In this document: one piece after another, positions 24,795-25,330 of the stretch
How positions within the stretch are numbered: position 1 is the first letter of the stretch
How the letters are laid out: the number at the start of each line of letters is the position of its first letter
IMG/VR virus record: IMGVR_UViG_2721755710_000007
Location: 1-64,000 of that record
Origin: a virus
Lineage: Duplodnaviria; Heunggongvirae; Uroviricota; Caudoviricetes
Strand: one strand, 5' to 3'
Length of the DNA: 64,000 bases
Position numbers and translations under genes: made by a program
Notes under the pieces: model-generated
What the model was told of the DNA's origin: nothing
The model's input: the letters and a program-made list of their open reading frames with translations, nothing else
Databases searched by the model: none

Positions 24795-25046
24795 ATGCCC
24801 AGTATCATTTTGTCTGACACCAGTGCAAGCGTCAGTGAGCTGAAAAAAAATCCGATGGCAACTGTCAGTGCCGGAGAGGGGTATCCTGTTGCCATTCTTA
24901 ACCGGAATCAGCCAGCATTCTACTGTGTCCCTGCTGAGCTCTATGAAAGAATGCTTGATGCCTTGGATGACCAGGAGCTGGTAAAACTGGTTACTGAACG
25001 CAGCAGTCAGCCTCTGCATGATGTGGACCTGGACAGTTATTTATGA
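24795..25046 (+). CDS. RelB/StbD-family antitoxin (83 aa)
   Basis: Small acidic protein 4 bp-overlapping a RelE-like ORF. Confidence 0.7.
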   Translation: MPSIILSDTSASVSELKKNPMATVSAGEGYPVAILNRNQPAFYCVPAELYERMLDALDDQELVKLVTERSSQPLHDVDLDSYL

Positions 25047-25330
25047 CTTATACAGTAAAATTCCGGGATGATGCACTGAAAGAATGGCTCAGACTGGACA
25101 AGACCATTCAGCAGCAGTTCGCAAAAAAACTGAAAAAATGCAGTGAAAATCCTCATATAGCTTCTGCAAAACTACGTGGATTAAAGGACTGCTATAAAAT
25201 CAAACTTCGCGCATCAGGTTTTCGTCTGGTTTATCAGGTTATTGATGATATGTTAATTATTGCGGTCGTCGCAGTAGGTAAACGTGAACGCAGCAACGTT
25301 TATCATCTCGCCAGTGAACGGATGAAATAA
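25043..25330 (+). CDS. RelE/StbE-family toxin (95 aa)
   Basis: 95-aa basic protein with RelE/ParE-like C-terminus; ATGA overlap with the antitoxin. Confidence 0.7.
   Translation: MTYTVKFRDDALKEWLRLDKTIQQQFAKKLKKCSENPHIASAKLRGLKDCYKIKLRASGFRLVYQVIDDMLIIAVVAVGKRERSNVYHLASERMK

Follow-up and report, generated by a model that had tools for sequence, protein, structure and literature searches.

What kind of system is formed by the two short, overlapping open reading frames (ORFs) at positions 24,795 to 25,330 of the virus record IMGVR_UViG_2721755710_000007, and what might it do for the element that carries it? The window, by which we mean the whole stretch of 64,000 nucleotides (nt) analysed here (positions 1 to 64,000 of that record), is a P1-like (IncY-type) phage-plasmid, and the original prediction saw in these ORFs a RelE/StbE-family toxin-antitoxin pair, described as RelB/RelE-type, that would be the third addiction module in the window. 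Our analyses favour reading the pair as a complete type II toxin-antitoxin operon of the StbD/StbE family, acting by the mechanism proposed below, and we put the probability of this reading at about 85%. The features that make up the module are, in their order along the DNA:

24730..24747, + strand: operator-like palindrome O1, AGACTTGTTAAGCAGTCT, of the direct-repeat family, overlapping the putative -35
24734-24739, + strand: putative -35 hexamer TTGTTA, inside O1, read by eye
24757..24762, + strand: putative -10 hexamer TAATCT, 17 nt after the -35 and ending 3 nt before the O2 core
24765..24782, + strand: operator-like palindrome O2, AGACCTGTTAAATAGTCT, lying between the -10 and the ribosome-binding site and covering the start of transcription, which is expected near 24769
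24795..25046, + strand: stbD antitoxin gene, ATG start, 83 amino acids, identical to WP_001139206.1
25043..25330, + strand: stbE toxin gene, ATG start, 95 amino acids, identical to WP_000222771.1

The two genes lie, to the base, where they had been predicted. They overlap by 4 nt (ATGA, within TTATGA), the start codon of stbE overlapping the stop codon of stbD, and a strong Shine-Dalgarno sequence, GAGGTG, stands 5 nt upstream of the stbD ATG; stbE has no good one. Given this overlap and the unequal ribosome-binding sites, synthesis of StbE is probably coupled to translation of StbD and kept below it. For comparison, 80 homologous loci were fetched from species-representative genomes, ranging from Citrobacter, Pectobacterium, Photorhabdus and Yersinia to Marinobacter, Halomonas and alpha- and betaproteobacterial metagenome-assembled genomes. 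A RelE-like ORF followed the antitoxin gene in 72 of 79 of these loci, and the overlap between the two genes was 4 nt in Enterobacterales and, in most loci outside this order, 11 nt. The locus in the window thus has the hallmarks of a type II toxin-antitoxin system, with the antitoxin gene first, an overlapping toxin gene, a conserved pairing of the two, and palindromes upstream.

Homology to stbDE variants of IncF plasmids that are 84-89% identical at the DNA level started at 24728-24730 and ended at 25317-25329, thereby running from O1 to the end of stbE and delimiting the functional module. Compared with one of these variants (L002, approximately 88% identical DNA), stbD of the window showed 20 synonymous and 3 nonsynonymous differences, and stbE showed 29 and 5, respectively; the ratio of nonsynonymous to synonymous substitution rates (dN/dS) was approximately 0.03 for each gene. 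Both stbD and stbE are under strong purifying selection, and they are real genes rather than chance ORFs.

As for the toxin, the family homology expected of the 95-residue protein was found by searches with hidden Markov models: StbE scored 35.8 bits against TIGR02385 (RelE_StbE), for which the curated cut-off is 27.9, over residues 5-86 of 95, and matched Pfam PF05016 at 3.6e-15. A sequence search of the PDB returned E. coli RelE (4v7k/4fxe) at E = 1e-29 over residues 1-93, and RelE entries were the only PDB sequences matched at E ≤ 0.01. In a BLASTP comparison StbE was 54% identical to K-12 RelE over 94 residues, and since this alignment is ungapped, residue positions of the two proteins correspond one to one. 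RelE residues R45, K52, K54, R56, R61, R81, R83 and Y87 are all identical in StbE. Among these, K52, K54, R61, R81 and Y87, plus R45, are the catalytic and mRNA-binding residues of RelE, as known from the RelE-ribosome structures (Neubauer et al. 2009). Among 73 StbE homologues, R61 and R81 were present in all 73 and K52, K54 and Y87 in 71; moreover, the deposited sequences of RelE structures bear R45A and R81A substitutions, which agrees with such roles. Judged by its sequence, StbE is a RelE/StbE-family toxin, as had been predicted, and by analogy with its relatives it is expected to be a ribosome-dependent mRNA endonuclease.

The antitoxin turned out to be composite, and its two parts can be delimited as follows:

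StbD, approximately residues 1-55: Phd/YefM-type N-terminal domain (PF02604, YafN)
StbD, approximately residues 57-83: RelB-like toxin-binding tail (profile match to RelB 53-79)

The N-terminal part was assigned through several family resources. StbD matched PF02604 (Phd/YefM) at E = 3.2e-5 with 24.0 bits, and when 30 diverse members of the StbD family, 61-89% identical to StbD of the window, were scanned singly against the same model, all 30 matched at E ≤ 1e-3, the best at 6.5e-8. The best NCBIfam match of StbD was the YafN model (1.5e-10, below the equivalog cut-off of that model). A database search with StbD gave 4,545 relatives. The closest go by the names 'Phd/YefM family antitoxin', 'antitoxin StbD' and 'RelB/StbD', and for many of those with 84-96% identity a PF02604 match had been precomputed. 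The Prokaryotic Genome Annotation Pipeline (PGAP) likewise names WP_001139206.1 a Phd/YefM family antitoxin, and RefSeq lists it under this name together with WP_000222771.1 as a RelE family toxin. In Pfam, PF02604 was the only match of the window StbD, with no RelB-family or ribbon-helix-helix match, and the N-terminal 55 residues aligned neither with RelB nor with the RelB/DinJ antitoxin of a plasmid.

The C-terminal part gave a different picture. Positions 57-82 of the StbD family profile aligned with RelB 53-79, DEDAELVEIVKERLRNPKPVRVTLDEL, which is the C-terminal end (27 residues) of E. coli RelB and makes up the RelB chain of PDB entry 2kc8, RelE with a RelB peptide. In a search of the whole PDB this match reached an E-value of only 0.37, because the RelB tail segment is short; in a direct comparison, the StbD C-terminal profile scored 21.8 bits against RelB 53-79, and composition-matched shuffles averaged 0.2 ± 2.0 bits and peaked at 18.8, so that 0 of 20,000 reached 21.8 bits. 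A plasmid RelB/DinJ-type antitoxin shares the tail of StbD, and its partner toxin is 60% identical to StbE. These sequence comparisons are best summed up by describing StbD as a fusion of a DNA-binding head of the Phd/YefM type with a toxin-binding tail like that of RelB. The label RelB/RelE-type thus holds for the toxin and for the C-terminal tail of the antitoxin, and fails for the N-terminal domain, which is of the Phd/YefM rather than the ribbon-helix-helix type; an assignment of StbD as a RelB was rejected for this reason.

A sequence search of the PDB with StbD alone gave no match at E ≤ 0.01, and with a looser threshold it returned weak matches to the DnaT N-terminus and chance matches to plastocyanin. 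The resemblance to DnaT involves StbD residues 5-53 (24807-24953) and was weak both in PDB entry 9zbu (profile E = 0.016) and in the NCBIfam DnaT model (6.7e-4); it may reflect a fold shared by DnaT and antitoxins of the YafN/StbD type.

The region upstream of stbD holds O1 and O2, two copies of an 18-nt imperfect palindrome that start 35 nt apart. The pattern AGACYTGTTAANNRGTCT matched twice in the 64-kb window, at O1 and O2, where 0.09 matches would be expected by chance. Nearly all of the homologous loci, which are spread across Proteobacteria, carry this same palindrome upstream of stbD, with the 20-bp consensus AAGACCTGTTAACAGGTCTT, and the sequence around and between the palindromes is not conserved. 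When we searched for the 16-nt core of the palindrome with at most three mismatches within 120 nt upstream of stbD, at least one site was found in 56 of 79 loci and two sites in 32; in all, 88 core sites lay upstream of stbD, compared to a single one in the other 371 kb of these loci. O1 of the window has four mismatches to this core, all but one of them at variable central positions.

The arrangement of the sites is conserved as well. They start approximately 30-35 nt, and approximately 65-70 or 85 nt, before the ATG, and the distance from one site to the next falls into two classes, 34-35 nt for Enterobacterales and 53-54 nt for Marinobacter, Litoribacillus and some Photorhabdus. The spacing of 35 nt in the window corresponds to the modal value among enterobacterial homologues, 21 of 32 two-site loci being spaced by 34-35 nt. 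In 19 of the 32 there is also a -10-like hexamer, with on average 4.4 of 6 matches, whose end lies 2-3 nt ahead of the proximal site. This comparative placement, combined with manual reading, points to a weak sigma-70 promoter for stbDE. Very probably, as judged from its sequence and position, the palindrome pair is the autoregulatory operator, and by the comparison of these loci a strongly conserved pair of palindromic operators marks out the regulatory region throughout the StbDE family. A description of the palindrome AAGACCTGTTAACAGGTCTT was not found in the literature searched.

From these elements the following mechanism can be proposed. A single weak promoter would drive both stbD and stbE. 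The Phd/YefM-type N-terminal domain of StbD would dimerise and bind DNA, while its RelB-like C-terminal tail would wrap around StbE and block the toxin, and StbD or the StbD-StbE complex would repress the operon by binding O1, which covers the -35, and O2, which covers the expected transcription start. Should the DNA be lost, or StbD be degraded faster than it is made, StbE would be freed, and as a RelE-type toxin it would enter the ribosomal A site, cut mRNA and halt translation and growth. Freed StbE would in this way put cells that lose the plasmid, or this segment of cargo, at a disadvantage. The sequence analysis establishes how the genes are arranged, to which families they belong, that catalytic residues and operators are conserved, that selection is purifying, and where in the element the module lies. 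For the copy in the window, repression, lability of the antitoxin, mRNA cleavage and stabilisation are proposed by analogy with its relatives, and post-segregational killing or abortive infection, which the original prediction had ascribed to it, may likewise be among its effects.

Such modules are well known. In pEntH10407, repA4 and a small ORF are followed by stbD (83 amino acids) and stbE (95 amino acids), ORF062-066, a locus named stbDE that has identical genes in pB171, near-identical genes in pSS, and its prototype in R485 (PMC2762410); membership of the pair in this published family bears out the predicted classification. stbDE of R485 is counted as one of the classical modules of post-segregational killing (PMC7167474), and stabilisation of a plasmid by such killing is reported for it (cited in PMC7167474 and PMC2762410). 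For the StbDE of an IncI2 plasmid, the toxin was shown to be toxic and the antitoxin to neutralise it, the two proteins form a complex, the genes are co-transcribed, and the antitoxin is made in 9-fold excess over the toxin (PMC11878559). StbD of pAPEC-O1-ColBM (WP_001132900), which is of the same lineage as ours, has been included in an antitoxin vector for plasmid curing, where it is meant to neutralise toxins after plasmid loss (PMC11537010).

The closest of these systems are the stbDE pairs of IncF plasmids (pB171 orf44/orf43, pEntH10407 ORF063/ORF062, pSS of Shigella sonnei and pAPEC-O1-ColBM), which have the same sizes of 83 and 95 amino acids and the same gene order; in the IncF variant compared above, StbD is 96% identical to the window copy. 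From these the window copy differs in location alone, since it lies in a cargo island within darB of a P1-like (IncY) plasmid and not beside an IncFII replicon. The pairs of R485/IncX, the founding stability determinant (Hayes 1998), and of IncI2 pHNSHP45 also combine an 83-residue Phd/YefM-type antitoxin with a RelE-type toxin. The pair of an IncX1 plasmid, used here as a stand-in for R485 itself (HE577112), was 53% identical to the window pair in the antitoxin and 56% in the toxin, and differed in having a toxin of 93 amino acids and an overlap of 11 nt instead of 4. As to K-12 RelBE, its toxin aligns with StbE without gaps and with the same catalytic residues, and RelB 53-79 resembles the StbD tail; however, the N-terminal domain of RelB is ribbon-helix-helix and that of StbD is Phd/YefM-type, hence the operators are expected to differ from those of K-12 RelBE. 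Phd-Doc of P1, YefM-YoeB and YafN-YafO have antitoxin N-terminal domains in the same superfamily as StbD (PF02604), whereas the toxin partner of Phd is Doc and StbE belongs to the RelE family.

stbDE is thus an already known and routinely annotated addiction module, and the copy in the window is intact and ordinary, since identical copies are annotated in hundreds of E. coli plasmids. The 701-bp region was at least 99% identical in 184 PLSDB plasmids, and 478 plasmids matched in all. Among 5,426 complete E. coli genomes the stbDE region was present in 621, in 472 places on plasmids and 203 on chromosomes, and in a collection of 50,697 phage records no near-identical copy of the module was found.

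The element that carries the module was recognised as P1-like by the C4 antisense RNA and its targets, two tRNAs, phd-doc, c1, cre, ref, lxc and ulx, and by pieces of backbone that are 96-99% identical to P1. Its two further addiction modules are:

7928-8149: phd, intact
8149-8529: doc, intact
44292-44466: sok RNA, 113.9 bits
44461-44616: hok, encoding Hok of 51 amino acids, with mok overlapping hok

The hok/mok/sok locus (44292-44616) is complete and lies in the P1-like backbone. With phd-doc and hok/sok confirmed, stbDE is indeed the third of the addiction modules that had been named, although no exhaustive search for a fourth was made. StbD and the Phd of the window bear no meaningful likeness (BLASTP E = 0.03; hhalign probability 1.3% for the StbD family profile against this Phd), and as the two toxins are of different families too, cross-talk between stbDE and phd-doc was rejected as unlikely.

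Collinearity with P1 ends at window position 24181, corresponding to P1 12285, inside darB, which is cut down to its 3' 1.8 kb (window 22365-24181, P1 10469-12285). A listed ORF of 643 amino acids is this darB fragment run on into foreign DNA across the junction at 24181/24182. The foreign DNA is a cargo island of approximately 11 kb (24182-35495) that is bounded by insertion sequence (IS) elements, interrupts P1 darB, and contains, in this order, an IncFII relic, stbDE, a PhoX scrap, an autotransporter gene, an IS3 element, an IS1, three ORFs of unknown function and a second IS1. Its annotated features, besides stbDE, and the IS elements of the window are:

24211..24689: relic of the IncFII region downstream of repA (repA4 side), approximately 92% identical to more than 4,000 IncF plasmids, outside the toxin-antitoxin function
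25420-25402, - strand: terminator-like hairpin between stbE and the autotransporter gene
25620-26033, - strand: PhoX-type alkaline phosphatase scrap, Pfam E = 0.004 (sub-threshold), with a partial pseudogene as its RefSeq equivalent
26190-29687, - strand: autotransporter gene, 1,165 amino acids, WP_001038839.1, 860 nt downstream of stbE and convergent with it
13760-15461, 31169-31936, 34726-35495 and 29735-31008: IS elements, comprising three IS1, an IS5 fragment and an IS3-family element

The module accordingly lies in the cargo region adjoining the autotransporter gene, as had been noted in the prediction. The relic matches IncF plasmids at positions just 3' of repA, with no repA adjoining it here, and in IncF plasmids a stbDE variant is found directly 3' of the repA/repA4 segment. 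The presence of this relic upstream shows that stbDE came out of an IncF plasmid along with the DNA preceding it, and relic and stbDE together are a record of genes passing from conjugative IncF plasmids to a P1-like phage-plasmid. The stbDE-autotransporter block also occurs in other P1-like plasmids, with extra cargo adjoining, and in one E. coli chromosome containing P1-like DNA, and in many chromosomes a decayed remnant is left, a 180-bp scrap of the stbE 3' end beside an IS1 and the same autotransporter gene. Leaving the original classification unchanged, our check thereby adds to it the head-tail chimerism of StbD, the operator pair conserved in the family, and the IncF origin of this copy.

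Several observations weigh against reading stbDE as a complete operon that acts as proposed. The PF02604 score of StbD, 24.0 bits, is below the gathering score of 29.8, and AlphaFold2, given 32 close homologues, returned a poor model of the StbD monomer with a mean predicted local distance difference test (pLDDT) score of 53, so that the Phd/YefM fold is supported by sequence only. A consensus promoter scan flagged no + strand promoter upstream of stbD, which is explained by the putative promoter matching only 7 of 12 consensus positions. Identity to the tested relatives is only 53-56% (IncX1 type). The element already carries phd-doc and hok/sok, and StbDE of IncI2 was dispensable for vertical stability and conferred a weak competitive advantage (PMC11878559), for which reason a stabilising role cannot simply be assumed here.

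The redundancy with phd-doc and hok/sok and the dispensability of IncI2 StbDE for plasmid stability (PMC11878559) would also fit a stbDE that works and is nevertheless a mere passenger, having arrived with the IncF-derived and autotransporter DNA and having no measurable effect on maintenance. Its place in an IS-bounded cargo block, beside the IncFII relic, suits this explanation, as does its linkage to the autotransporter gene in other backbones and in chromosomes, where stbE is sometimes reduced to the 180-bp scrap. Yet both genes and both operators are intact in the window, selection across the variants is strongly purifying, and near-identical copies persist in 184 plasmids, and we regard a pure passenger as plausible but rather unlikely. 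A different doubt concerns the toxin, which might be a ParE-type gyrase poison and not an mRNA endonuclease: its top Pfam match, PF05016, carries the name ParE_toxin, PGAP labels it 'RelE/ParE family', and the ParE-like model PF15781 matched it at 8.5e-6, with 26.1 bits against a cut-off of 28. However, PF05016 models the RelE/ParE superfamily as a whole; StbE scores above the cut-off of the specific RelE_StbE model, is 54% identical to RelE over the full length and keeps all of the RelE catalytic residues, and the newer RefSeq annotation reads 'RelE family toxin'. With PF15781 sub-threshold and RelE alone among the PDB matches at E ≤ 0.01, a ParE class for StbE is very unlikely indeed.

Two further explanations concern the benefit that the module might bring. 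Being approximately 96% identical to StbD of the IncF variant, whose toxin has approximately five nonsynonymous changes, StbD of the window could neutralise the IncF StbE, and the locus could then serve as an anti-addiction or competition device with which a host sheds a stbDE-bearing IncF plasmid without being killed. stbDE variants are situated directly 3' of the IncFII replicon in many IncF plasmids, and competition between plasmids through toxin-antitoxin modules has been shown experimentally, with a weak effect for IncI2 StbDE (PMC11878559). On the other hand, cross-neutralisation cannot be shown by sequence, and copying from an IncF plasmid may have been without selective consequence; as an explanation of the locus this device seems quite unlikely. 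A doubtful proposal that we offer as speculation is that StbD of the window works against addiction and would let the host of the P1-like element shed or resist IncF plasmids bearing stbDE, and that, more broadly, StbD proteins are natural chimeras of a Phd/YefM DNA-binding domain with a RelB tail for toxin binding, which would recognise the 20-bp AAGACCTGTTAACAGGTCTT conserved from Enterobacterales to Marinobacter and Halomonas. Some type II toxin-antitoxin systems abort phage infection, and StbE freed by an infecting phage might do the same. P1-like phage-plasmids often bear defence systems in their variable regions (bioRxiv 10.1101/2025.09.12.675607), but neither StbD nor StbE matched any defence model in PADLOC, no report of abortive infection by the StbDE family appeared in the literature searched, and the usual location of stbDE is beside plasmid replicons, which makes an anti-phage role highly improbable. 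We therefore retain the reading of stbDE as a type II addiction operon, whose presence would explain part of how a cargo-laden and possibly defective P1-derived plasmid could be retained.

The surroundings of the module and of the island can be described briefly. Neither the 139-residue antisense ORF at 24600-25019 nor five small flanking ORFs had a family in Pfam, apart from the sub-threshold PhoX scrap, and we treated the antisense and small flanking ORFs as non-coding or as pseudogene remains; the 55-residue ORF of the relic (24541-24708) is identical to WP_001352029.1 and is likewise without a Pfam family. A permissive Rfam scan (E ≤ 1) gave no RNA family in 24000-26300. Beyond the island, the P1 genes that come after darB (prt portal, pro, lysis genes, ssb and the tail-fibre region) were not seen in the window ahead of sit, and they were also missing from both sections that we read of the closest plasmid, p22Q34-2. 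The element may be a defective P1-derived plasmid. The two rightmost IS1 bracket the three ORFs of unknown function (31973-34720), the last IS1 truncates sit, and the P1 backbone resumes after this second IS1 in the sit/c4/ant/repL region; rearrangement mediated by IS1 probably shaped both the cargo island and the deletion in the backbone.

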